DNA of 64,000 nucleotides from Alphaproteobacteria bacterium (lineage in GTDB: Bacteria > Pseudomonadota > Alphaproteobacteria > MPNO01), in the NCBI GenBank assembly GCA_965117055.1, contig OZ220750.1, positions 4,271,977 through 4,335,976 of the forward strand. The letters run 5' to 3'. The translations under genes were made by a program, and so were the position numbers. The notes under the pieces were generated by a model. That model ran no database searches, was not told the DNA's origin, and saw only the letters and a program-made list of their open reading frames with translations. Positions 4,154-44,730 of the stretch are shown here, one piece after another; position 1 is the first letter of the stretch, and each line of letters opens with the position of its first letter.

Positions 4154-4981
4154 CTATCTCTTGTGACGCCGGCGCATGATGAGCGCGTCGCTCTTCTTCT
4201 TGCGCCGCGTCCGCTTGCCCTTGGTCGGCACGCCCCACGGCGTCACCGGGTGGCGGCCGCCCGAGCTCCGGCCCTCGCCGCCGCCATGCGGATGGTCGAC
4301 CGGGTTCATCGCGACGCCGCGCACCGAAGGCCGCTTGCCCAGCCAGCGGTTTCGTCCCGCCTTGGCCTTCTTGATGTTCTGGTTGTCCGAATTGGAGACC
4401 GCGCCGATCGTCGCCATGCAGCGCGCCGGCACCATCCGCGCCTCGCCCGAGGTCAGGCGGAGCTGGGCGTAGCCCGAATCCTTGCCGACGAGCTGCGCAT
4501 AGGTGCCCGCCGCACGCGCGATCTGCGCGCCCTTTCCGGGGCGCATCTCGATATTGTGGATGATCGTGCCGACCGGGATGTTCTCCATCGGCATGGCGTT
4601 TCCCGGCTTGACGTCCACCGACCTGCCGGCAACCACCACATCGCCGGCAGCGAGTCGCTGGGGCGCGATGATGTAGCTCTGCTCCCCGTCCTCGTATTTG
4701 AGCAGCGCGATGAAGGCCGACCGGTTGGGGTCGTATTCGATCCGCTCGACCGTGGCGGGCACGTCGAACTTGCGCCGCTTGAAATCGATCTTGCGGTAGA
4801 GCCGCTTGTGGCCGCCGCCGCGCCGCCTGGCGGTGATCCGGCCCGCGTTGTTGCGCCCGCCCTTGGCGGACAGGCCCTCGGTCAGCTTCTTGACCGGGCG
4901 ACCCTTCCACAGCTCCGAGCGGTCGACGAGGATCAGCCCGCGCTGCGAAGACGTGACCGGGTTGTATTTCTTCAGCGCCAT
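4154..4981 (-). CDS. rplB: 50S ribosomal protein L2
   Basis: 275 aa with [13 protein letters not shown]2 signature. Confidence 0.95.
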
Positions 4982-4984
4982 CGC

Positions 4985-5302
4985 CTAGACCCCCGTCGTC
5001 ACGTCGATCGATTGGCCTTCGGCGAGCGAGACCATGGCCTTCTTGTAGTCCGACCGCTTTCCGATGCGGCCGCGGAAACGCTTCGTCTTGCCCTTCTGGC
5101 GGATCGTGTTGACCGCGGTGACCTCGACGCCGAACAGCTTCTCCACCGCCGCCTTGATCTCGGGCTTGGTGGCGTCGAGCGGCACGCGGAAGGTGATCTG
5201 GTTGTGCTCGCTCGCCATCGTCGACTTCTCGGTGATGATCGGCGAACGCAGCAGCTCGCAGGCGCGGCCCTCGGAGACCCGGACGGGACCGGTGCGCTTC
5301 AT
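4985..5302 (-). CDS. rplW: 50S ribosomal protein L23
   Basis: Internal start MKRTGPV...[24 protein letters not shown]... The start ATG overlaps the rplD stop (ATGA at 5299-5302). Confidence 0.88.
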
Positions 5303-7005: not shown

Positions 7006-8198
7006 TGCTACTCGATGATCTGTGCGACGACGCCGGCGCCGACGGTGCGCCCGCCCTCGCGGATCGCGAACCGCAGACCCTCGTCCATCGCGATGGGCAC
7101 GATCAGCTCGACGTCCATCGAGACGTTGTCCCCCGGCATCACCATCTCCGTCCCCTCCGGCAACGCAACCTGGCCCGTCACGTCCGTCGTCCGGAAGTAA
7201 AACTGCGGACGGTAGTTCGAGAAGAACGGCGTGTGACGGCCCCCCTCCTCCTTGGTCAGAATGTACGCCTCCGCCTTGAACTTCGTGTGCGGCGTGATCG
7301 AACCCGGACGCGCCAATACCTGGCCGCGCTCCACCTCGGTCCGCCCGACCCCGCGCAGCAGGCAGCCCACATTGTCCCCAGCCTCGCCGCTGTCCAGAAG
7401 CTTGCGGAACATCTCCACGCCCGTAACCACCGTCTTCGAGGTCTCCTTCAACCCGACGATCTCGACCTCCTCGCCGACATTGATCGTCCCCCGCTCGATC
7501 CGGCCCGTCACAACCGTCCCACGCCCCGATATCGAGAACACGTCCTCGATCGGCATCAGAAACGCCATGTCCTTCGGGCGGTCCGGCTGAGGAACGTAAT
7601 CGTCAACCGCCGTCATCAGCTCCAGCACCGAACCCGTCGCCGCCGGACCCTCGCCGCCCTCCAGAGCCTGAAGCGCCGAGCCCCGCACCACCGGAATGTC
7701 GTCGCCCGGGAAGTCGTAGCTCGACAGCAACTCCCGGACCTCAAGCTCTACCAGATCCAGAATCTCCTCGTCGTCCACCTGGTCCACCTTGTTCATGTAG
7801 ACCACGATCGCCGGAACCCCCACCTGGCGCGCCAGCAGGATGTGCTCCCGGGTCTGCGGCATCGGGCCGTCCGCCGCCGACACCACCAGGATCGCACCGT
7901 CCATCTGAGCCGCCCCGGTGATCATGTTCTTCACGTAGTCCGCGTGACCCGGGCAATCCACGTGCGCGTAGTGGCGCGCGCCGGTCTCGTACTCGACATG
8001 CGCCGTCGCGATGGTGATCCCCCGCGCCTTCTCCTCCGGCGCCTTGTCGATCTGGTCGTAGGACGTGAACTCCGCCCCGCCGGCCTCCGCCAGAACCTTG
8101 GTGATCGCCGCCGTCAGCGTCGTCTTGCCGTGATCGACATGCCCGATCGTCCCCACATTGCAGTGCGGCTTCGTACGCTCGAACCTAGCCTTCGCCAT
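7006..8198. repeat. Duplicated tuf segment, copy 1 (about 1.19 kb, near-identical to 23309-24501)
   Basis: Identity starts 2-3 nt beyond the tuf stop and ends exactly at the start codon. One synonymous difference was noticed. Confidence 0.9.
7008..8198 (-). CDS. tuf: Elongation factor Tu, copy 1
   Basis: 396 aa [35 protein letters not shown]... with GTPase motifs; located between fusA and rpsJ. Confidence 0.97.
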
Positions 8199-8234: not shown

Positions 8235-10310
8235 CTACGCCATCTTGGCGCGGACTTCTTCCGCGATGCCTTGCGGAACCTGCTCGTAATGGTCGAAATG
8301 CATCGTGAACTGGGCCCGCCCCTGGCTCATCGAACGCAGGTTGTTGACGTAGCCGAACATGTTGGCGAGCGGCACGATCGCGGTGACGACGCTGGCGTTG
8401 CCCCGGCCGTCCATCGCGCTGATCTGGCCGCGCCGGCCCTGCAGATCGCCGATGATGTCGCCGAGATAGTCCTCCGGCGTCACCACTTCCAGCCGCATCA
8501 CCGGCTCCAGCAGCTTCGGCGCGGCGCGCGACACGCCCTCGCGAAACGCCGCTCGGGCCGCGATCTCGAACGCCACCGCGGACGAGTCGACCTCGTGGCT
8601 GTCGCCGTCCAAGAGCGTCACCGCGACGTCGATCACCGGGAACCCGGCGAGCACGCCGACCTCGCTCGCGCCCCGAATACCCTTTTCCACCGCGGGGATG
8701 AACTCGCGCGGTACCGTGCCGCCCCTTACCGAACTGACGAAGTCGTTTCCGCTTCCCCGCTCGCCCGGCTCGAAGCGGAGCGCCAGCTTGGCGTACTGCC
8801 CGGCGCCGCCGGTCTGCTTGCGGTGGGTGTATTCGTGCTCGACCGCCTTGGAGACGGTCTCGCGATAGGCCACCTGGGGCATGCCCACATTGGCGTCGAC
8901 CCGGAATTCCCGGCGCATGCGGTCGACCAGGATTTCCAGGTGGAGCTCGCCCATCCCCTTGAGAACGGTCTGTCCGCTCTCCGCGTCGACCGAGACCCGG
9001 AAGCTCGGATCCTCCTGGGCGAGACGGCCGAGCGCGGAGGACATCTTCTCCTGATCCGACTTGGTCTTGGGCTCGACCGCGATCTCGATCACCGGATCGG
9101 GGAACTCGATCCGTTCCAGCACCACCGGATGGCGCGGGTCGGACAGTGTCTCGCCGGTGGTGGTGTCCTTCAGACCGGCCAGCGCGACGATGTCGCCGGC
9201 ATGCGCCTGGCTCGCCTCCTCGCGCGAATTCGCGTGCATCAGGAGCATCCGGCCGACCCGCTCGCGCTTTCCCTTGACGGTGTTGAGGATGGTCTCCCCG
9301 CTCTTGAGGACCCCGGAATAGATCCTGATAAACGAAAGAGACCCCACGAAGGGGTCTGTCATGATCTTGAAGGCCAGCGCGGAAAACGGCTCGTCGTCGC
9401 TGTTGCTGCGCACGATTTCCTTGTCGGTGCGCATCTCCACGCCGCGAATCGCGTGGGTCTCGTCGGGCGCCGGGAGATAGTCGATCACGGCATCGAGCAG
9501 CGGCTGCACGCCCTTGTTCTTGAACGCCGAGCCGTTGAGCACCGGCACGAAGGCGCCGGCGACCGTGCCTTTGCGGATACAGGCCCTGAGCGTCTCTTCG
9601 TCGGGTTCGGTGCCCTCCAGATAGGCTTCCATCGCCGCGTCGTCCTGCTCGACGGCGACTTCGATGAGGGATTCCCGGAAGCGCCGCGCGCTGTCGGCGA
9701 GGTCCGCGGGGATCTCGCCCTCGACGAATTCGGCCCCGAGGGTTTCGTCCTTCCAGACGACCGCCTTCATCCGGACCAGATCGACCACGCCGGCATAGCC
9801 CGCCTCGACGCCGATCGGGAGTTGCAGGACCAGGGGCCGCGCGCCCAGGCGGTCCTCGATCATCTCCACGCAGCGCGGGAAGTCGGCGCCGACCCGGTCC
9901 ATCTTGTTGACGAAGCAGATGCGCGGCACCCGGTACTTGTCGGCCTGGCGCCAGACGGTCTCGGATTGCGGTTCGACCCCGGCGACGCTGTCGAACACGG
10001 CGACCGCGCCGTCCAGCACCCTGAGGCTTCGCTCGACCTCGATGGTGAAGTCGACATGGCCGGGAGTGTCGATGATGTTGACCCGGCAATCGCGCCAGAA
10101 ACAGGTCGTCGCGGCCGAGGTGATGGTTATGCCGCGTTCCTGCTCCTGCTCCATCCAGTCCATGGTGGCGGTGCCCTCGTGGACCTCGCCGAGCTTGTAG
10201 GACCGGCCGGTGTAGTAGAGCACGCGTTCCGTCGTGGTCGTCTTGCCGGCATCGATATGGGCCATGATGCCGATATTGCGGTAGCGGGAAATTGGCGTCT
10301 TGCGCGGCAT
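8235..10310 (-). CDS. fusA: Elongation factor G
   Basis: 691 aa [33 protein letters not shown]..., canonical EF-G. Confidence 0.97.
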
Positions 10311-24944: not shown

Positions 24945-25698
24945 AGTCGCTCCCATGACGAGAAACAAGGGCAAGCGGCGGGGGCGCGAAAGCCGCTCCG
25001 CGGTCTGGCTCTACGGCCGCCACGCGGTGGCCGCGGCGCTTGCCAATCCGAAGCGCGGGCGGGTCCGGTTTCTCGCCGAGAACGAGGCCGCTGCGGCCTT
25101 CGCGGAGCACGCGCCCGAGATCGTCGAGCGCGCGGTGCTGCGCCAGGTGCTGCCGGAGGGCGCGGTGCACCAGGGGCTCGCCCTCCTCGCGGAGCCCTTG
25201 CCGGATGCCGGGCTCGACTCGCTTCTGCGCGCGGCGGAGGCGCGGAAACGCGCGGCGCTGGTGGTCCTCGACCGGGTGCAGGACCCGCAGAACGTGGGCG
25301 CCGTCCTGAGAAGCGCCGCGGCGCTCGGCGCGCTCGGCATGGTGATCCCGGACCGCCGCGCCCCGCCGGAAACCGGCGCGCTGGCCAAGGCGGCTTCGGG
25401 CGCGCTCGAACGCGTGCCGGTGATCCGGGCCGCCAACCTCGCCCGCGCGCTGGCCGCGATGAAGGCGCGCGGGTTCTGGTGCGTCGGTTTCGACGCCGAT
25501 TCGGAAACCGAGCTCTCGCCGGGCGCGCTGCCGGATCGCTGTGCGCTGGTGCTCGGCGCGGAGGGCGGCGGGCTGCGCCGGCTGACGGCGGAGACCTGCG
25601 ACCTGATGCTGCGGATCCCGATGGAGGAAGGGGCGGCGAGCCTCAACGTCTCGGCCGCCGCGGCGATCGCCCTCTACGCCCACTCCCAGGGAACGTGA
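24945..25698 (+). CDS. SpoU/TrmH-family RNA 2'-O-methyltransferase (RlmB-like 23S rRNA Gm methyltransferase)
   Basis: The C-terminal 250 aa of the listed ORF (MTRNKGKRRGRESRSAVWLYGRHAV...VLDRVQDPQNVGAVLRSAAALG...LVLGAEGGGLR...SLNVSAAAAIALY) carry SpoU methylase motifs. An alternative ATG lies at 24918. The 5' part of the 720-aa ORF is antisense read-through of tuf. Confidence 0.8.
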
Positions 25699-25704
25699 AC
25701 CCGC

Positions 25705-27108
25705 TCAGGCGGGGCAGGCAATCGCGCGGTGCAGGGCGCGCACCGCCTGGACGAAACACTCCATCGGGGCGGCGGTGATGCCGGCGCCGATCTGCCCGAT
25801 CCCGGCCTCCCGGTGGGCGATCCCGGTGTTGACGATGGGTAGAATCCCGCTGTCGGCGACCTTGCGCACGTCGATCCCGGCCGGCGCGGCGGCGAAATCG
25901 AGGATCGGCAGGGTGAAGGCCGGGTTCTCGCCGATGGTCACCCGGCGCATCTCGCGGCTGGCGGCGATCGCCTCGCTCGCGCTGCCGCCGACGAAGCGGA
26001 CGATGGCGGGCGCCGCGGCCATGGCGAATCCGCCGAGCCCGGCGGTCTCGGTGATCGCGCTGTCGCCGATATCGCGCGCCGCGTCCTCCCGGGAGAAACC
26101 GGAGAAGTAGAGCCCCTCGACGACGGGCGCGGGGGCGGCGAACCAGCGGTCGCCCGTTCCGCTCATCTGGATGCCGAACTCCACGCCGTTCCGCGCCATC
26201 GCGATGACCATCGACGAAAACGGCACGTCGTGCGCGGCGTCGAGCATCGCCTTGCAGGCCGCCATCGAGAGGTTGATGAAGAAGTGGTCGTTGCCGGCCA
26301 TGAACGCGAACGCCCGGGAAACCGCGTCGGGATCGGCGCCCGAGCGGAGCGCCGGCGGAACCAGCCGCTTGATCAGGAGCGAGGTGGCCGCCGCGTTGCG
26401 GTTATGCGCCTCGTCGCCCATGTGGAGCGCCTGCGCGATCAGCGGCTTGAGCGCGATGGGACCGCTCTCGTCGAGCGCGCGGGCGAGGATGCCGGCGAGC
26501 TCGCCCCGCATCCAGCGCAGCCGTTCGATCACCTCGGGTCCGTTGGCGCCGAACCGCAGCACCTTGCCGAGCCCCTCGTTGAGCCCGGAACAGGCGACAT
26601 TCCCGGCGTCGGCGTTCTCCACGATCCACATCGGCATCGAGGGCGAGGTGACACCGGACATCGGACCCACCGCGCAATGGTGGTGGCACGAATCGAATTC
26701 GATCCCGCCCGCATCCACGAGCGCGCGCGCCGCATCGAGATCGTCGGCCCAGCCTTCGAACAGCACCGCGCCCAGCACCGCGCCCCGCATCGGCCCGCAC
26801 ATCTCCTCCCAGGCCACCGGCGGGCCGGCGTGGAGGATCGTGCGCGCGCCCATCCCCGGCAGCACGTCGATCGCCGGCCCGATTCCCTGCACCGTGGGCT
26901 CCGCGGCCAGGAAGCGTCCGAACGCGGCCCGGTTCGCGGCTTCGATTTGCGTATGCTCCACCAGGGTCGCGAGTTCCATCCCGGCCTCGCGCGACCCGCC
27001 GGCCGGGGGTCGCCAGTCGATGTCGCGGACGGCGCCTCCTTCCTCCTGTATGGCCTCGGCGAACGCCCCGATGCCAAGATTGAGCACCGCGGGGGCGCGT
27101 TTCAGCAT
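25705..27108 (-). CDS. DUF1116-family protein (YlbE-like)
   Basis: Start placed at MLKRAP (GGGGAGG SD upstream, 8 nt after the fdrA-like stop). Blocks HAGPP..W.EMCGPMRGA..GA.LFEGWA, CHH..AVGPM.G.TS.SMPM..VEN, LNEG.GKV.RFGA.G, DSAITET.G.GG.AMAAAP..VRFVG and NTGIAHREAGIGQIGAG resemble E. coli YlbE/DUF1116 as I recall it. This needs HMM confirmation. Confidence 0.7.
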   Translation of the reverse strand: MLKRAPAVLNLGIGAFAEAIQEEGGAVRDIDWRPPAGGSREAGMELATLVEHTQIEAANRAAFGRFLAAEPTVQGIGPAIDVLPGMGARTILHAGPPVAWEEMCGPMRGAVLGAVLFEGWADDLDAARALVDAGGIEFDSCHHHCAVGPMSGVTSPSMPMWIVENADAGNVACSGLNEGLGKVLRFGANGPEVIERLRWMRGELAGILARALDESGPIALKPLIAQALHMGDEAHNRNAAATSLLIKRLVPPALRSGADPDAVSRAFAFMAGNDHFFINLSMAACKAMLDAAHDVPFSSMVIAMARNGVEFGIQMSGTGDRWFAAPAPVVEGLYFSGFSREDAARDIGDSAITETAGLGGFAMAAAPAIVRFVGGSASEAIAASREMRRVTIGENPAFTLPILDFAAAPAGIDVRKVADSGILPIVNTGIAHREAGIGQIGAGITAAPMECFVQAVRALHRAIACPA

Positions 27109-28616: not shown

Positions 28617-29726
28617 TTACGCGGGCAGCTTGTCCATGTCGACGATCGCCGCCACCATCCCGCCGCCGGCCGGCCCCTGCTGGAGCGCGGCGACCGAGAC
28701 GAAGACCGCCGGATCGCCGACCGCGGCCGAGACCACCCCGCCCACCGTCGCCTTTGTCGTAAGGGTGTGGTGCACGTCGGAATCGTTGAGCGAGACCTGC
28801 CGCCTGCCGCGCAGCCGCCCGGTCGGGTCGGTCTCGCACTTGACGAAGCAGTTGACCAGCGCATCGCCGAGATCCGACGGGTGCGGCCGGTCCGGCAGGT
28901 TCAGCCCGGCGTCGCGGATCGCCTCGTAGATCCCGTCCGTGTCGATCGCGTCCTTCATCACCGAATGGCCGATGCGGAACCGGCCGCCGGCGCCCTTCCG
29001 GTTGCCGACGACGACGATCTGCGCCGCCAGCTGCTCGTTGCCGCTGGAGCACGACGCGACCGACGAATAGACGTCGAAGTCTTTCCCGATCTGGTCCTCG
29101 CGCGGCATCGGGATCTCGCCGAGCGCGTAACCGATGCCGAGCGCCGCGGTGGCGTTGGCGATCGACATCGATTCCATGGTCTCCTCGGTGGCCACGGTAT
29201 GGCCGCGCGCCTTGGCGTCGGCGATGGTCTCGACGGTGAGCAGGGGGGACTTGGACTGGACGTAGTGGATGTCGGACGCATCCTCGATGCCGGCGTCCAG
29301 CATCGCGAGCTTCACCCCCGCGGCGACCTTCTCCACGCCCGCCGGCCGGCCGATGTCCTCGGGCGCGATCGCCTCGGACATGGCGATGCCCATGGCGAGC
29401 CGTTCGGCCTCCGGGTCGGCATCGGGATCGTCCACCCGCGCGAACACGTTGATATGGGGCGAGATGACGCCGGGGCAGCCGCCCGACAGCGCGATCGGCA
29501 CCCGCATGGCGGCCTCGCGTCCGCCGCTCCCCCCGGCCACCAGGAAGTCGCGCAGCACCCGGTCGACCAGGATGCGGCCCAGATCGTTGACCCCGCCATT
29601 GCCCTCGGTCTTGGCGACCAGCGCCACGATGTCGTCGACGCCGAACCCCTCCTCCGCCATCGCCGCCTCGATGCCGGCGGTATCCTGAACGCTCTCCATC
29701 GGAACCTTGCGGGCGACGATCGCCAT
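28617..29726 (-). CDS. Ring-opening amidohydrolase of the cyanuric acid hydrolase (AtzD/TrzD) / barbiturase family
   Basis: 369 aa. KTEGNGGVNDLGR, ALSGGCPGVISPHINVFAR, HYVQSKSPLL, SLNDSDVHHTLTTKATVGGVVSAAVG and QQGPAGGGMVAAIV parallel the AtzD blocks KTEGNGCVND, SGGTEGVLSPHHTVFAR, HFVQVKCPLL, LSDSDINSTRHARAVTGAAIASVVG and HQGPAGGG. The length and three-repeat architecture are typical of the family. Confidence 0.8.
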   Translation of the reverse strand: MAIVARKVPMESVQDTAGIEAAMAEEGFGVDDIVALVAKTEGNGGVNDLGRILVDRVLRDFLVAGGSGGREAAMRVPIALSGGCPGVISPHINVFARVDDPDADPEAERLAMGIAMSEAIAPEDIGRPAGVEKVAAGVKLAMLDAGIEDASDIHYVQSKSPLLTVETIADAKARGHTVATEETMESMSIANATAALGIGYALGEIPMPREDQIGKDFDVYSSVASCSSGNEQLAAQIVVVGNRKGAGGRFRIGHSVMKDAIDTDGIYEAIRDAGLNLPDRPHPSDLGDALVNCFVKCETDPTGRLRGRRQVSLNDSDVHHTLTTKATVGGVVSAAVGDPAVFVSVAALQQGPAGGGMVAAIVDMDKLPA

Positions 29727-29824
29727 GGCTTCCCCCTTCGATTTCCCGTAACCCTGCCCCGCAGGCTAGCAGAGACGCCGCCGCGCTTGAACGCGGGCCG
29801 GAGCGGCGCTATTTGTGGCCGGCT

Positions 29825-29900
29825 GCCGGATTAGCTCAGATGGTAGAGCGGCTGATTTGTAATCAGCAGGTCGGCGGTTCGAGCCCGTCATCCGGCACCA
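29825..29900 (+). tRNA. tRNA-Thr (anticodon TGT)
   Basis: GCCGGATTAGCTCAGATGGTAGAGCGGCTGATTTGTAATCAGCAGGTCGGCGGTTCGAGCCCGTCATCCGGCACCA. Acceptor stem GCCGGAT/ATCCGGC, anticodon loop TTTGTAA, encoded CCA. Confidence 0.85.
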
Positions 29901-30603
29901 GCCTTTTCGTTGGTATACGGGTAGAATACGTCAGGGTTGTCGCCCTATTTTGTCACTTTCGACAGCGAGTTTGTCGCCGTTGTCCTCGTTTTGAGCTCGA
30001 CGATGGCCACGCGGGGGAGGCGTTCCTTGTTGGCGCCGTGCGTCAACCGCCTGCCATCACGGCCTACCGATAGCCTGTGATCGCCATGATCTCGCGGTCC
30101 GTCGCGCATGCTTCGGCAAGCCGCGCGTGCGTAGTAGGGGCCGTGAAACTTGGGACCTTTCAAGCCCAAGCGGCCCGACCCCGACAATTTTGCCAAGGCC
30201 GCAATCGACGCTTGCAGCAGCAGCGCATCCCGGACGCCTTCGCTTGGCTGGGGGGCTCGGGGTCGCCGCACGCGCCCGCCCCGTCCAGCTGATGTTTCTT
30301 GTGGGCTCCAAGTCGAGCGGCAGCACCTTCTACAACACGGGGCAGCCTGCGCTCACACAAGCTGATTGGGTATCCCGCCCCGGGATAGGCGGTTGCGCTG
30401 CTGGTGTCGTTCGTCGAGAGGTGGCGGGCTTCCGAACGTCCAGATGTGTACGGGGCAGTGCAGGGGCCCCGGTCCTTTCCAAGTTGCCGTTCAGGCGACC
30501 GGAGCGCATATTCCGCGCCGGTCCCGGAAAGCCAAGGAAAAGCAAACAAAACCCCGGGCGCATACCAGATGGCAGAGGCGGGTCCGGAGCGTACGAGGTG
30601 AAT

Positions 30604-31322
30604 ATGGCCAGTCGGACGACGGACGTCAAGCGGTTCTCCTACACAGACGATATCCTAGGCCAACTCTCAGTCTCGCTGTCGGAGGAGCGCCTGACCACCT
30701 ATCTTGATGCTGCCGATGGAGACCGCAAACGGGCCATTCGCCTGCACGTCTGGAACACGGGCATCAGCGCCGCGTTCTACGGGCCGCTGCAGGGGCTGGA
30801 GGTGGCGCTGCGCAACGCGATGCACCGGCGCCTTGCCGGCGCGTACGGCGAAACCTGGTACGACAATGGCAACGCGGAGCTCGACGCGGGCGCAAGGGAG
30901 CAAATCGTCCACGTGCGCGCACGCCTAGCGGGTGATGGCCGCGCCGACAACCCCCACCGAATTGTTGCGGGGTTGTCTTTCGGGTTCTGGGTTGCGCTGC
31001 TGCGTCGCGGAGGCCCCTTGGCGACGGCCGCAGGGCGGATTACGAGATGACGCTCTGGCGACCAGCCCTGCGCGGGGCATTCCCGCATTGCGCCTCCCTC
31101 AATCGCAGGCAGGCCCACCAGCCATTAGACGCATTGCGGTTGTTGCGCAACCGGACCGCTCATCACGAGCCGATTTTCACGCGAGACTTGGCGGAGGACC
31201 ACGACCGGATACTCGAAGTGGTGGGATGGATTTCTCCAGAGACGCGGAGGTGGATCGCCCACCACAGCCGCGTTCCTGGATTGCTCCAGACTTCGCGCTA
31301 CGCGGGAAAATCCGGGTTTTGA
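30604..31322 (+). pseudogene. Abi_2-family (AbiD/AbiF-like) abortive-infection gene, interrupted by a frameshift near 31010-31046
   Basis: The N-terminal piece MASRTTDVKRFSYTDDILGQLSVSLSEERLTTYL...GLSFGFWVALLRRG (GAGGTGA SD) ends at 31050. The continuation in another frame (31047-31322) carries LWRPALRGAFPHCASLNRRQAHQPLDALRLLRNRTAHHEPIF, which fits the conserved Abi_2 RNR.AHH.R.WN motif. Together they are about 240 aa. Confidence 0.65.
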
Positions 31323-31648
31323 AAATGAAAGTCCCGAACGGGCGGGCGGCACGCCACGATTGCCGATCCTCGATCTACGCGAAACGCGGAGCCACTGGCT
31401 GGACCCAACGCACTGCACAAATTCCTGCTCGGCCCGGATCCCGATGATCTGCTCTACCCTGAACCTCGATCGTCTCGTGTCCGTCTCCTCGGTGATGGAT
31501 TTTCCCATTGGACAAGGGAGATTCTAGGGCGCAGGTCAGGCTGGGCCCGACCGTGTCGAGAGTTCGGAGATGTTCCTTTCGCCCCGCGGCGCGACTTTCC
31601 CGCCAGCCCCGACCGTCGAAACGTGAATTGTGGCTCGCACTTGCCCGC

Positions 31649-31693
31649 GTTGTAATCTCCAGGCCAGCGGTTCGAGCCCGTCATCCGGGACCA
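31649..31693 (+). repeat. Direct repeat of the tRNA-Thr 3' half (putative attR of an integrated element)
   Basis: TTGTAATCTCCAGGCCAGCGGTTCGAGCCCGTCATCCGGGACCAGCC versus tRNA 29859-29903 TGTAATCAGCAGGTCGGCGGTTCGAGCCCGTCATCCGGCACCAGCC. About 40/46 bases are identical and the T-arm and acceptor are perfectly conserved. Confidence 0.75.
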
Positions 31694-31848
31694 GCCGTGC
31701 GCCTCCGCCCAGATAGACGGTTGCCAACGCTTCGCCGGTCATCCATAAGGTTCGCGGCATATTCCCGTGACCGGTCGTCGAGGCGTGCGCGTCCCATGCC
31801 GCCGTGCCCTCGTCCCCTGGCAGTCGACCGAAGGACGAGGAGACGGTC

Positions 31849-33816
31849 ATGACCGGCGCCGCGAACGCGCTCCCGGATATTACGCTCCACGACACCTCGC
31901 CCAAGCTGCTCCGGTGGAACGCGGAGACGCGCGGCGGCCGGCCCTGCCTGAGGGAGAAGCATCTCGGCATCTGGGAGACCATGACCTGGAGCGAAGCCGC
32001 GGCTAACGCGAGGCAAATCGCCTGCGGGCTCAAGACCCTCGGCATGGCGCGTGGCGACCGGGTGTCGATCATCGGCGACAACCGGCCGGTGCTCTACAAC
32101 GCGATCCTCGCGATCCAGTCGCTCGGCGGCGTGCCGGTGCCGATCTACCAGGATTCGGTGGCCGACGAGACGCGCTACGTCCTCAACAACTCCGAGGTGC
32201 GCTTCGTCTTCGCCGAGGACCAGGAACAGGTCGACAAGGTCCTGGAGATCAAGCCCGACTGCCCGACCATCGAGGGGGTGATCTACGACGACCCGCGCGG
32301 GCTCAGGAACTACCGCGAGGCGTTCCTGTGCAGCACCGAGGACCTGATGCGGGACGGCCGGGCATACGACGCCGCGAATCCCGGGTTCTACGACGCGGAA
32401 GTCGACCGGGGAACGCCGGACGACACCTCGGTCATCCTCTATACCTCCGGCACCACCGGCAATCCGAAGGGCGTCGTCCTTTCCTACCGGAACGTGCTGG
32501 TCAGCGCGATGAACTCGGTGCGGCTGGAGGGGCTCGGCGAGACCGACGAGGTGCTGGCCTATCTGCCGATGGCCTGGGTGGGCGATCACATGTTCTCCTG
32601 CGGGCAGGCGCTGGTGGCGGGTTTCTGCGTGTCCTGCCCGGAATCGTCCGACACCGTGCTCAACGATCTGTGGGAGGTGGGGCCGACCTATTTCTTCGCG
32701 CCGCCCCGGATCTTCGAGAACGTCCTGACCACGGTGATGATCCGCATCCAGGACTCGGGCTGGGTGAAGCGGAAGCTGTTCTTCCACTTCCTCGAGATCG
32801 CGAAGCTGTACGGCAAGAAGATCCTCGACGGCGAGAAGGTCGCGTTGGCGAACCGTCTCCACTACGCGCTCGGCTCGCTGCTGATCTTCCGGCCGCTGAT
32901 GAACACGCTCGGGCTGACCAGGGTGAAGCTCGGCTACACCGCCGGGGAGGCGATCGGGCCCGACATCTTCGACTTCTACCGCAGCATCGGTTTCAACCTG
33001 AAGCAGCTTTACGGCATGACCGAGGCGAGCGTGTTCATCACCATCCAGCCGAACGGCGAGGTCCGGTCGGACACCGTGGGGCGGCCGGCGACCGAGGTCG
33101 AGCTCAGGATCGAGGGCAACGAGGTCCAGTTCCGCAGCCCCGGCGTGTTCGTCGAGTACTTCCGCAACCCGGAAGCGACCGCGGAGACCAAGACCGAGGA
33201 CGGCTGGTGCCGCACCGGCGACGCCGGCTTCATCGACGCCGAGGGCCACCTCAAGATCATCGACCGCGCCAAGGATGTCGGCCGTCTGAACGACGGCACG
33301 CTGTTCGCGCCCAAATACATCGAGAACAAGCTCAAGTTCTTCCCCGACGTTTTCGAGGCCGTCAGCTTCGGCCACGAGCAGGACTACGTGACGGCCTTCA
33401 TCAACATCGACCTCGAAGCGATGGGCGACTGGGCGGAGCGCAACGGCATCTCCTATGCCAGCTACCAGGAGCTCGCCGGCCTGCCGCAGGTCTACGACAT
33501 CGTCCAAAGGCGGGTGGAGCAGGTGAACCGGGATCTCGCCGCGGACTCCGATCTCGCCGGCGCGCAGATCAGGCGCTTCCTCGTGCTCCACAAGCAGCTC
33601 GACGCGGACGACGGCGAGCTGACCCGGACCCGGAAGGTCCGCCGCCGCCACGTCTCGGACAAGTACGGCTCCCTGATCGAGGCGCTCTATTCCGGGCAGG
33701 ACCGTTGCGGGATCGAGACCGAGGTGACGTTCGAGGACGGCCGCAAGGGCATGGTGCGCGCCGATCTGCAGATCCGGGACGTCGCCCCGTCCGAAGCGGA
33801 GAGGAGCGCCGCGTGA
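31849..33816 (+). CDS. AMP-dependent synthetase/ligase (long-chain-fatty-acid--CoA ligase family)
   Basis: Start at MTGAANALPDITLHD. It has the AMP-binding motif YTSGTTGNPKGV and a C-terminal ligase domain. The listed ORF has a short upstream extension. Confidence 0.85.
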   Translation: MTGAANALPDITLHDTSPKLLRWNAETRGGRPCLREKHLGIWETMTWSEAAANARQIACGLKTLGMARGDRVSIIGDNRPVLYNAILAIQSLGGVPVPIYQDSVADETRYVLNNSEVRFVFAEDQEQVDKVLEIKPDCPTIEGVIYDDPRGLRNYREAFLCSTEDLMRDGRAYDAANPGFYDAEVDRGTPDDTSVILYTSGTTGNPKGVVLSYRNVLVSAMNSVRLEGLGETDEVLAYLPMAWVGDHMFSCGQALVAGFCVSCPESSDTVLNDLWEVGPTYFFAPPRIFENVLTTVMIRIQDSGWVKRKLFFHFLEIAKLYGKKILDGEKVALANRLHYALGSLLIFRPLMNTLGLTRVKLGYTAGEAIGPDIFDFYRSIGFNLKQLYGMTEASVFITIQPNGEVRSDTVGRPATEVELRIEGNEVQFRSPGVFVEYFRNPEATAETKTEDGWCRTGDAGFIDAEGHLKIIDRAKDVGRLNDGTLFAPKYIENKLKFFPDVFEAVSFGHEQDYVTAFINIDLEAMGDWAERNGISYASYQELAGLPQVYDIVQRRVEQVNRDLAADSDLAGAQIRRFLVLHKQLDADDGELTRTRKVRRRHVSDKYGSLIEALYSGQDRCGIETEVTFEDGRKGMVRADLQIRDVAPSEAERSAA

Positions 33817-41494: not shown

Positions 41495-41632
41495 GTCCCG
41501 TACCGTCCTCCCCCTCACCCCGGCCCTCTCCCCGCCGGGGAGAGGGAGAGTAACGGCACCCACCGCGCCTTACTTCTCCCCTCCCGCTGGCGGGAGGGGC
41601 CGGGGGAGGGTGGAGCTACGCGGTACGGACCC
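41495..41632. repeat. GC-rich double-hairpin repeat element, copy A (REP/MITE-like)
   Basis: Terminal inverted repeats (GGTCCCGTACCG ... CGGTACGGACC) enclose two perfect 10-bp-stem hairpins, CCCTCTCCCC-GCCG-GGGGAGAGGG and CCCCTCCCGC-TGG-GCGGGAGGGG. It is about 75-80% identical to the reverse complement of copy B. Confidence 0.6.
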
Positions 41633-44619: not shown

Positions 44620-44730
44620 CGCCACCCTCCCCCAACCCCTCCCGCAAGCGGGAGGGGCGAAGATAAGGAAGAGTCGGCGCGCTAATCCCCTCTCCCCCGC
44701 GGGGGAGAGGGTCAGGGTGAGGGGGGTCTC
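44620..44730. repeat. GC-rich double-hairpin repeat element, copy B (inverted relative to copy A)
   Basis: Contains CCCCTCCCGC-AAG-CGGGAGGGG and CCCCTCTCCCCC-GCG-GGGGGAGAGGG hairpins. Its reverse complement aligns with copy A over about 110 bp. It overlaps the last few codons of the dehydrogenase gene. Confidence 0.6.

Follow-up and report, generated by a model that had tools for sequence, protein, structure and literature searches.

Why does a copy of the 3′ half of a tRNA gene stand about 1.8 kb downstream of the intact gene, and what is the DNA in between? In a 64,000-nucleotide stretch of DNA from an alphaproteobacterium (contig OZ220750.1; the whole stretch is called the window below), an intact gene for tRNA-Thr(UGU) is followed by an insert of about 1.75 kb that ends at such a copy and carries a gene resembling the Abi genes of phage defence. 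A preliminary description had taken this arrangement for the pair of attachment (att) sites, attL and attR, that site-specific integration leaves in a tRNA gene, and the enclosed DNA for a degenerate island. We consider it probable, though well short of certain, that the insert is the remnant of a genomic island that was once inserted by a tyrosine-type integrase into the 3′ half of the tRNA-Thr(UGU) gene, and that now resembles a cis-mobilizable element (CIME). The attL/attR signature is borne out by the geometry of the repeat, the foreign composition of the DNA within it and the absence of this DNA from 13 related genomes. The cargo appears to be a compact pair of a toxin-like gene and a conserved RNA hairpin.

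The repeat and the DNA it encloses

ARAGORN finds four tRNA genes in the window and agrees with Rfam (RF00005, 70.1 bits) that the tRNA-Thr(UGU) gene at 29825-29900 on the + strand is intact, as had been described. This gene, the presumed integration target, adjoins the AtzD gene in 13 related species. A direct-repeat search of positions 29700-31900 gave a single long repeat, 29857-29903 versus 31650-31696, whose copies are identical at 42 of 47 positions (89%) and lie 1793 nt apart; the reported copy of the tRNA 3′ half is thereby confirmed. The attL-like copy, at 29857-29903 on the + strand, is the 3′ part of the tRNA gene. It has its 5′ limit in the anticodon loop (TTGTAATC; TTGTAAT) and runs through the CCA to a 3′ limit three nucleotides beyond it (GCC), and this continuation past the CCA, which the preliminary description had pointed out, is present in both copies. 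The attR-like copy, likewise on the + strand, consists of the 3′ 44 nt of tRNA-Thr plus 3 nt, and neither sequence inspection nor Rfam revealed a tRNA 5′ half before it. Its five mismatches fall in the anticodon stem (31658 and 31659), in the variable loop (31664), at the first base of the T stem (31666, G to A) and at the last base of the acceptor (31689, C to G). The last two contradict the earlier statement that the T-arm and acceptor are perfectly conserved; only a core of 22 nt, GCGGTTCGAGCCCGTCATCCGG, is perfect.

The 30-mer GCGGTTCGAGCCCGTCATCCGGNACCAGCC occurs twice in the window, as against no occurrence in 100 dinucleotide-preserving shuffles, so the repeat is real and no chance match. 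A generic dispersed tRNA-derived repeat was rejected as its source: there are two copies in 64 kb, and the extra copies in related genomes are confined to the same locus, so that the repeat is indeed not a widespread one. Elsewhere in the window, a weak 22-mer resembling a T-arm and acceptor, with three mismatches to the repeat core, lies on the − strand at 25201-25222, between tRNA-Tyr and AllG.

The insert starts directly 3′ of the tRNA gene, between 29901 and about 29920. AtzD, FdrA-like and AllG genes lie on one side of the locus and a gene for an AMP-binding ligase on the other. The composition scan that had been suggested as a check marks the insert as atypical by three measures. Its GC content is 63.5%, compared with 67.2% for the window, which is the 6th percentile of equal-sized stretches; its tetranucleotide distance is the largest among equal-sized stretches in the window; and the GC content at third codon positions (GC3) of the Abi open reading frame (ORF) is 0.73-0.78, as opposed to 0.87-0.94 in the flanking AtzD, FdrA-like and ligase genes.

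Much of the structure of the insert emerges from a comparison with L033, a 3.2-kb Logan contig that carries a version of the same island. The left arm, at 29901-30013 on the + strand, has 53% GC, as the earlier remark about an AT-richer start implied; it is 84% identical to positions 3-117 of L033, and a terminator scan found in it, directly behind the tRNA gene, a terminator-like hairpin with a T run (29933-29956). It is followed by a 325-bp segment specific to the window (30014-30338), bordered by short direct repeats (ACGGGG) and missing from the otherwise collinear L033 island. This segment has no recognisable coding content: its ORFs are Pfam-negative, and it has no match in any locus compared. 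The region at 30339-30550 on the + strand, about 90% conserved in the alignment with L033, is the presumed promoter-bearing region of the module; a scan of the + strand upstream of the hairpin found no sigma-70-like promoter. Beyond the Abi-like gene lies a second window-specific segment of 229 bp (31388-31616, − strand), which L033 lacks and which has CGAAACG(C/T)G repeats at its borders. Within it is a short remnant of an insertion sequence (IS) of the IS3 family, comprising the orfA/orfB junction at about 31422-31552. By blastn, this remnant is 82% identical over 67 nt to annotated IS3 transposase genes of Dinoroseobacter plasmids and 73.5% identical over 130 nt to Azospirillum, and tblastn gave a match of 18 aa at 31422-31475 (E=5.7e-4).

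The island contains no integrase gene by Pfam, either among the complete set of ORFs with 50 aa or more in 29901-31700 or, at E<=1, among ten small ORFs covering 29901-30700 and 31100-31700. Searches by tblastn with two P4-type integrases (taken from L036, another locus with an Abi-like gene) and the integrase of phage phiC2 found no integrase remnant, and those with IS3, IS66 and IS481-like transposases gave the IS3 fragment alone. The reported lack of an integrase thus holds by both approaches. The island also has no tandem repeats of the ToxI type, and a blastn search of it against plasmids found distant Abi genes and IS3 fragments only.

An AbiF-like gene and the hairpin upstream of it

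The Abi-like gene is the only gene-like feature of the island, as had been claimed, but it is a split pseudogene, and it is accompanied by an upstream RNA hairpin. It occupies 30604-31322 on the + strand, with an ATG at 30604 and a ribosome-binding site (RBS), GAGGTGA, at 30595-30601. Three-frame translation divides it into two frames, one at 30604-31050 (TGA at 31048-31050) and one at 31047-31322 (TGA at 31320-31322), the second of which encodes the conserved C-terminal part (…LRNRTAHHEPIF…), to 31322. The closest homologue of the repaired protein is P0001, an intact protein of 244 aa that is encoded on L033 and is 92% identical. In an alignment of the window with L033, the frameshift site is found at 31014-31017 on the + strand, where the window has a run of four C nucleotides and the intact orthologue has five. 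The gene is thus frameshifted by a 1-nt deletion in a C run. The shorter run is also present in a second Logan contig, L034, which is a separate assembly and is 100% identical to window positions 29025-32082, and a truncated 148-aa product (P0098) is on record from a contig of 4.79 Mb.

The gene product is a predicted HEPN ribonuclease (RNase) toxin. The HEPN motif, here RNRTAHH, is encoded at 31146-31166; relative to the nearly invariant RNRIAHH it has an I to T change, which occurs in this copy alone. The residues R187, N188 and H192 of the R-N-x3-H pattern are invariant in our family alignment (A2). With the frameshift repaired, the 238-aa protein matches the PADLOC profile PD-T4-5 (PDLC04038) with an E-value of 6.9e-15 over residues 44-200. 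Its match to Pfam Abi_2 (PF07751), at 1.5e-4 and 22.6 bits, is below the gathering threshold of 25.6, and a match to HEPN_Swt1 is weak. P0001 scores 25.9 bits against Abi_2, just over the threshold, and each of the 22 family members that we sampled has an Abi_2 match at E<=0.01 (best 2e-8). The repaired protein therefore falls below the Pfam threshold, though its family, which has over 1000 full-length homologues of mostly 239-244 aa, belongs to Abi_2/AbiF by profile and fold. An AlphaFold2 model of P0001 (predicted local distance difference test, pLDDT, 85.3; predicted template modelling score, pTM, 0.81) has the AbiF fold: in a Foldseek search of the PDB, its top match is 8VZ6_A ('PbAbiF dimer bound to ncRNA'), with a probability of 1.00, a template modelling (TM) score of 0.60 and an E-value of 0.041, and all other matches have a TM score below 0.2. 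Searching PDB sequences with the profile of A2 returned only spurious matches to DARPins.

AbiF is the toxin of a type III toxin-antitoxin system in which the antitoxin is an upstream non-coding RNA, AbiFr, and the same holds for AbiF/RCd22 of C. difficile, where RCd22 carries the Rfam abiF motif RF03085 (PMC12373285, PMC12737573). The Abi-like gene of the window shares with these systems the HEPN R-N-x3-H motif, the fold match to PbAbiF (8VZ6), membership of the Abi_2 family, and a structured RNA directly upstream on the gene strand. On the other hand, its protein of about 240 aa is smaller than AbiF (about 290-300 aa) and is 14% identical to PbAbiF. Among defence profiles the best match is PD-T4-5, which is a system of abortive infection with a single gene, comes from an E. 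coli plasmid and has been described as a distant relative of AbiF/D (PMC9519451). Like the gene studied here, PD-T4-5 is a single-gene system on mobile DNA. Unlike it, PD-T4-5 is described without an RNA partner in the passages of that source consulted, and the match covers positions 34-214 of a profile that is 309 positions long.

The structured RNA came to light because about 55 nt before the start codon are nearly invariant in six aligned loci whose proteins are 66-72% identical. To avoid circularity, we fetched 80 further loci by protein alone and searched them with a sequence profile and then with a covariance model, R1, whose three helices (P1, P2 and P3) have 7, 4 and 4 pairs. R1 matches the window at 30541-30602 with 61.8 bits, and the hairpin itself lies at 30551-30590 on the + strand, in the 5′ leader of the Abi-like gene. 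Where enough upstream DNA was available, 51 of 72 loci have a match on the gene strand that ends at most about 20 nt from the estimated start codon. The hairpin is found in L033 (356-417), in L035 (8509-8570), at 7953-8014 in each of L036, L037 and L039, and in about 50 metagenome loci, and R1 also matches five prophage-type contigs of IMG/VR. Among the alphaproteobacterial copies it hardly varies. The sources of this protein clade include sponge symbionts, soil, freshwater and marine metagenomes, and prophage contigs.

Several observations argue that the hairpin is conserved as a structure. Among 64 distinct sequences, 90.6% of the pairing cells can pair, compared with 35-51% when the partners are slid, and 14 of the 15 pairs have compensatory changes on both sides; these figures, like the covariation score given below, are somewhat inflated, because the alignment was fitted to the model. 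A hand-checked alignment (A3) points in the same direction as the model-fitted counts. The covariation score is 0.200, as opposed to 0.087 in shuffles, and none of 500 shuffles reaches 0.200. The apical stems in A3 vary in length and sequence (UGC/GCA, UGCC/GGCA, CCUUCC/GGAAGG, UGUCGU/ACGAUA), and the G-U pairs indicate that the RNA is transcribed from the strand of the gene. The consensus reads aCCCCGG-nCGC-A-UGC[loop]GCA-GAG-GCGn-nn-CCGGGGu.

We tried the known abiF motif RF03085 as the identity of the hairpin and rejected it, since there is no Rfam 15 match to window positions 30480-30640 at E<=10, to 18 motif-bearing loci at E<=1, or to nine viral loci at the gathering threshold; in phage phiC2, used as a positive control, RF03085 was detected with 37.6 bits. 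The two motifs are loosely parallel: each has a basal stem rich in GC, one 5′ A, an apical stem of 3 bp (NGC/GCN) whose loop varies, an internal loop on the 3′ side that is rich in purines, and a closing U. Their layouts are CCCGCC-A-AGC-loop-GCU-CAAAUC-GGCGGG-U for RF03085 and CCCCGG-nCGC-A-UGC-loop-GCA-GAG-GCGn-nn-CCGGGG-U for the new motif. In contrast to AbiFr, the RNA here has an extra helix (P2) and occurs as a single copy that abuts the RBS, with no terminator between. By analogy to AbiFr, the hairpin is probably an RNA antitoxin or else a leader or regulator of the gene, and the chance that it represents an uncatalogued class of RNA antitoxin, belonging to a compact (about 240 aa) and widespread clade of AbiF-fold HEPN proteins, may be put at about even.

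The copy in the window departs from this consensus. The 3′ arm of its P1 helix reads CCGGAGC where CCGGGGT is otherwise invariant, and these two substitutions, again in this copy alone, go with a predicted minimum free energy of −12.9 kcal/mol, compared with −20.6 in L033, a cost of about 7.7 kcal/mol. The frameshift, the I to T change and the P1 substitutions together indicate that the module is truly decaying, and they fit relaxed selection after inactivation. Judging from these three kinds of sequence change, we regard the module as dead in this genome.

Related genes elsewhere occur in various contexts, next to integrase genes in L036 at one extreme and alone between ppx and ppk in L039 at the other. 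A tRNA of any kind is in the flank of 7 of 60 homologue loci, which is near background, and none of these is tRNA-Thr(UGU); the idea that the Abi family is a specific cargo of tRNA-Thr islands was rejected for this reason. In L036 (5322-8735), the Abi-like gene and hairpin follow two tandem P4-type tyrosine integrase genes, with a third integrase fragment at 4865-5092 and no tRNA within 8 kb; this is the sole integrase-linked context that we saw for the family. A gene for a winged helix-turn-helix protein is located upstream of the Abi gene in L035-L037, and there is no trace of it in the window. In L037, a close Abi homologue stands alone between housekeeping genes. In L039 (8001-8735), which is from the same genome as L006 (one of the relatives discussed below), a 66%-identical Abi-like gene with its hairpin forms a solitary insert of about 0.85 kb between ppx and ppk, with spacers of 104 and 52 bp to these genes. 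Some distant homologues are near integration targets: a tmRNA is 1.3 kb upstream of one in L066 (817-1167 and 2454-3181), and a tRNA-Cys is 300-450 bp upstream of those in L088 (4483-4556) and L097 (332-405).

The insertion site in related genomes

The closest version of the island is that of L033. This contig starts inside tRNA-Thr and then has, in the same order as the window, the left arm, the upstream region, the Abi-like gene in its intact form, the distal tRNA fragment and the ligase gene. Nucleotide identity to the window is 92.7% over the island, which is 1.2 kb long in L033, and 93.1% over the ligase gene. The two stretches of the window that are missing from L033 (30014-30338 and 31388-31616) each have short direct repeats at their borders. 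Between window and L033, the ratio of nonsynonymous to synonymous substitution rates (dN/dS) is 0.27 for the Abi gene (dS 0.14) and 0.13 for the ligase gene (dS 0.22). By identity and dS, island and ligase gene have diverged from L033 to a similar degree. The dN/dS of 0.27 suggests that the Abi gene was under purifying selection for most of the divergence time. As both lineages, which are about 7% apart, have the same island, it was already without an integrase in their common ancestor. By these comparisons, the island appears to be old and shared, and already reduced in the ancestor common with the L033 lineage, while the inactivation of the Abi gene in the window looks recent. Of the preliminary description of a degenerate island that retained a defence gene, the att-bounded and integrase-less nature therefore stands, but the gene itself is inactivated and the island is old and shared.

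To compare the site more widely, we used the AtzD protein to fetch 32 loci from GTDB species representatives, 13 of which are alphaproteobacterial (L001-L013, several of them titled Defluviicoccus sp.). In all 13, tRNA-Thr(tgt) lies about 100 bp from the start of AtzD, and homology to the window ends at 29900-29920, no more than about 20 nt past the tRNA 3′ end. The stretch 29920-31650 is absent from all of L001-L013, so that the insert, with both repeats, is kept in L033 only. The first approximately 20 nt after the tRNA (TTTTCGTTGG...) are common to L001-L003, L005, L006 and L009.

What follows the tRNA differs between species. L001 has IS66 and IS3 elements, L004 an Eco57I-like methyltransferase, L005 an IS element and a gene with a NYN domain, L006 an N6/N4 DNA methylase, L009 an MmeI-like enzyme, and L012 an IS element plus metabolic genes. 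The 3′ side of tRNA-Thr(UGU) is a multi-species insertion hotspot with turnover, at which several relatives carry genes of the restriction-modification (RM) type, candidates for defence, or IS elements. We found no tyrosine integrase in L033 or, within 10 kb of the tRNA, in the 13 relatives.

The ligase side of the window (from 31659/31700 onward) is present in 4 of the 13 relatives, at varying distances from the tRNA: about 0.6 kb in L002, 0.8 kb in L003, 1.2 kb in L006 and 2.9 kb in L005. The DNA between tRNA and ligase in these four genomes is unrelated to the insert of the window. L003 and L006 nonetheless have a 3′ fragment of tRNA-Thr at the same place before the ligase gene, and L002 keeps a short residue of one; a different tRNA-Thr fragment is found 340 bp from the tRNA in L005, and a third, degenerate copy in L006. 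Fragments of different lengths in L003, L005 and L006 are what repeated integration and accretion would leave. In the window, the distal fragment is followed by 12-14 nt similar to the native tRNA flank of L010 and L011, which would be expected of the original 3′ end of the tRNA gene after its displacement.

The spacers between tRNA-Thr and ligase in L002 (9234-9822), L003, L005 and L006 are non-coding and consist mostly of GC-rich palindromic repeats (e.g. CGTCATGCCCGGACTTGTTCCGGGCATCCACG), which are shared among these four and absent from the island of the window. In L006 (7634-9925 of CBDDOM010000002.1), the 5′ end of AtzD and tRNA-Thr are duplicated (the equivalent of window positions 29646-29920), with a degenerate tRNA at the original place (9872-9918) and an intact one 2.2 kb further on (7654-7729). 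The N6/N4 DNA methylase gene and an ORF of 236 aa are located between these copies, which looks like an insertion that brought its own full tRNA.

Genomes with an empty tRNA-Thr site, which had been proposed as a check, do exist. In the more distant relatives L007, L010 and L011, none of which has the insert, the DNA 160-320 bp after the tRNA is collinear with the window from 44759 onward, beginning with a gene similar to 3-hydroxyisobutyrate dehydrogenase. What is missing there is not only the 1.8 kb but 14.85 kb in all (29901 to about 44750). This extra DNA consists of the 1.75-kb mini-island, the tRNA fragment and a metabolic cluster (31.8-44.7 kb) with genes for an acyl-CoA ligase, a Liv-type ABC transporter, a second AMP-binding enzyme, an MFS transporter and a TRAP transporter. 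The first gene of the cluster, for the acyl-CoA (AMP-binding) ligase, is at 31849-33816 on the + strand (Pfam AMP-binding, 3.2e-67), lies outside the mini-island and is collinear with L002, L003, L005, L006 and L033. Since the empty-site relatives join the tRNA to the DNA from 44759 onward, the metabolic cluster is also lineage-specific at this site. Its GC3 is native-like in the two genes measured: the ligase gene has 0.94, and its orthologues in L002-L006 have 0.80-0.95. A second tRNA fragment was not found at the far end of the 14.85 kb. Two GC-rich palindromic copies of about 105 nt, which resemble repetitive extragenic palindromes or miniature inverted-repeat transposable elements (REP/MITE-like), flank the TRAP transporter genes in inverted orientation (41510-41613 and 44622-44726); the second ends about 30 nt before 44759, where collinearity with L007 starts, and the element is also present in L001. 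On the other side of the tRNA, collinearity with relatives breaks a second time at 25686-25717, where L001, L002 and L004 have insertions of 0.2-2.5 kb, which may be another variable spot.

Origin of the island and its meaning

In the integrative account that we favour, the crossover would have taken place between the anticodon loop and the 3′ end of the tRNA. The incoming element would have supplied a new 3′ half, by which the tRNA was kept intact (attL, 29857-29903), and the original 3′ end would have been pushed 1.8 kb downstream (attR, 31650-31696). The integrase and everything else would later have been lost, while small indels accrued, including an IS3 element of which about 130 nt are left. 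The surviving cargo would be a compact AbiF-like module, namely an HEPN RNase toxin of about 240 aa and, in the same transcript, a three-helix hairpin of about 40 nt. By analogy with AbiF/AbiFr and AbiF/RCd22, the hairpin may bind and neutralise the toxin. The pair would then be a type III toxin-antitoxin system with a part in abortive infection, and the addictive nature of such a module could explain why it outlasted the rest of the island.

An element of this kind has known counterparts. CIMEs are defined as att-flanked elements without genes for integration or transfer, a definition that the window element fits (PMC5704250). It resembles them in its att-like direct repeats, of which one coincides with a tRNA 3′ end, in that no integrase, excisionase or transfer genes were found in it, in its small cargo, and in the extra or tandem att fragments that relatives have at this site, as accretion would produce. 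It differs from them in that CIMEs were defined in Firmicutes, beside identifiable parental integrative and conjugative or integrative mobilizable elements and with cis-mobilisation demonstrated, whereas no parental element or cognate integrase was found for the window element, and its attR copy has five mismatches. The other counterparts are genomic or defence islands associated with tRNA genes, and defence hotspots that lack integrases. Like these, the site has variable DNA starting at most about 20 nt from the tRNA 3′ end, atypical composition, IS elements, and RM-type genes (candidates for defence) that differ by species (Eco57I-like methyltransferase, N6/N4 methylase, MmeI-like), with the AbiF-like module in their place here. 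Unlike them, the island is very small, with a single module, and no integrase is present in any genome examined.

The comparison with such hotspots leads to a different account of the locus, which we regard as unlikely but as the strongest competitor. Here the tRNA fragment would be a very old scar unrelated to the cargo, and the Abi module would have come later, by illegitimate insertion or by recombination between flanks (the tRNA with its approximately 20 nt on one side, the fragment with the ligase gene on the other), as has been proposed for integrase-less defence hotspots. The lack of an integrase at the site in any of 14 genomes speaks for this, as does the fact that genomes with unrelated internal content keep both the 20 nt after the tRNA and the distal fragment. 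So do the solitary inserts of close Abi homologues in L037 and L039 (between ppx and ppk), by which the module appears to be mobile without a tRNA-specific integrase, and the scarcity of tRNA genes near homologues (7 of 60, none for tRNA-Thr(UGU)). However, the DNA between the repeats is uniform and foreign in composition along its whole length, and the distal repeat extends to the anticodon loop (TTGTAATC) in the window and L033, whereas in L003 and L006 similarity begins at the variable loop. The island-side attR thus differs by island type, which is expected if each island brought its own attP (TTGTAATC...CACCAGCC plus the left arm) and is unexpected from an exchange between fixed flanks. 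Much less probable still, and the least likely account of all, is that no mobile element was involved and that the distal fragment is what remains of a tandemly duplicated tRNA-Thr region, or of a second tRNA-Thr gene that lost its 5′ half. The duplicated AtzD 5′ end and tRNA-Thr in L006, with one copy degenerate and 2.2 kb of methylase-containing DNA between, offer a precedent, but in the window only the 47 nt are duplicated, and the DNA between the copies is foreign in composition and absent from relatives. Moreover, identity blocks between att sites and tRNA genes usually run from the anticodon loop to a few nucleotides past the CCA (after Williams 2002), and this is the span of the fragment.

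The state of the module is a separate matter. Just one base of a C4/C5 run is affected, and the dN/dS of 0.27 reflects long-term constraint, so one might suppose that the frameshift is a homopolymer sequencing error and that gene and hairpin are still a functional defence or toxin-antitoxin system. We give this little credence, given that the C4 run recurs in L034 and the truncated 148-aa protein is on record, that the RNRIAHH motif is altered in this copy alone, and that two invariant positions of the basal stem of the hairpin are substituted, with about 7.7 kcal/mol lost.

Several points nevertheless weigh against the integrative account and the decay of the module as we have described them. 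It is solely from the scar that site-specific integration is deduced, because there is no integrase, excisionase or remnant of one here, in L033 or, up to 10 kb from the tRNA, in the 13 relatives. The approximately 20 nt shared after the tRNA by genomes with different inserts fit a single ancient event followed by internal replacement at least equally well. An exact search of the viral contigs of IMG/VR with the tRNA 3′ half (as a 27-mer and a 20-mer) gave no matches, hence no candidate donor. Because the frameshift is in a homopolymer run, a sequencing error is conceivable; two assemblies agree on it, but both may go back to one set of reads. Finally, with a protein 14% identical to PbAbiF and no match to RF03085, the antitoxin role of the hairpin is proposed by analogy. 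Considering turnover at the hotspot and the lack of any relative with an integrase, two scenarios are live, and the decay of a single island is just one of them.

The island is in itself ordinary, a decayed tRNA scar of a known kind, and the RNA motif is the more interesting part. For annotation, the Abi gene of the window is best recorded as a pseudogene; the locus also defines a hotspot at the 3′ side of tRNA-Thr(UGU) in a Defluviicoccus-like clade of alphaproteobacteria that is known only from metagenome-assembled genomes, and it provides an att-flanked element that has persisted without an integrase over at least two lineages about 7% apart in nucleotides. It has also led to a small AbiF-fold family with a covarying upstream hairpin that no Rfam model matches. 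If the hairpin is indeed an AbiFr-like antitoxin, it would constitute a second, simpler RNA-protein pair in which an HEPN toxin is controlled by a cis-encoded RNA, and it would extend the type III paradigm of AbiF/AbiFr, a proposed ancestor of Cas13, to a second RNA architecture, with a bearing on the origin of Cas13. The covariance model would then be ready for use in annotating such modules in metagenomes, and addictive modules would be what remains when tRNA-borne islands decay.

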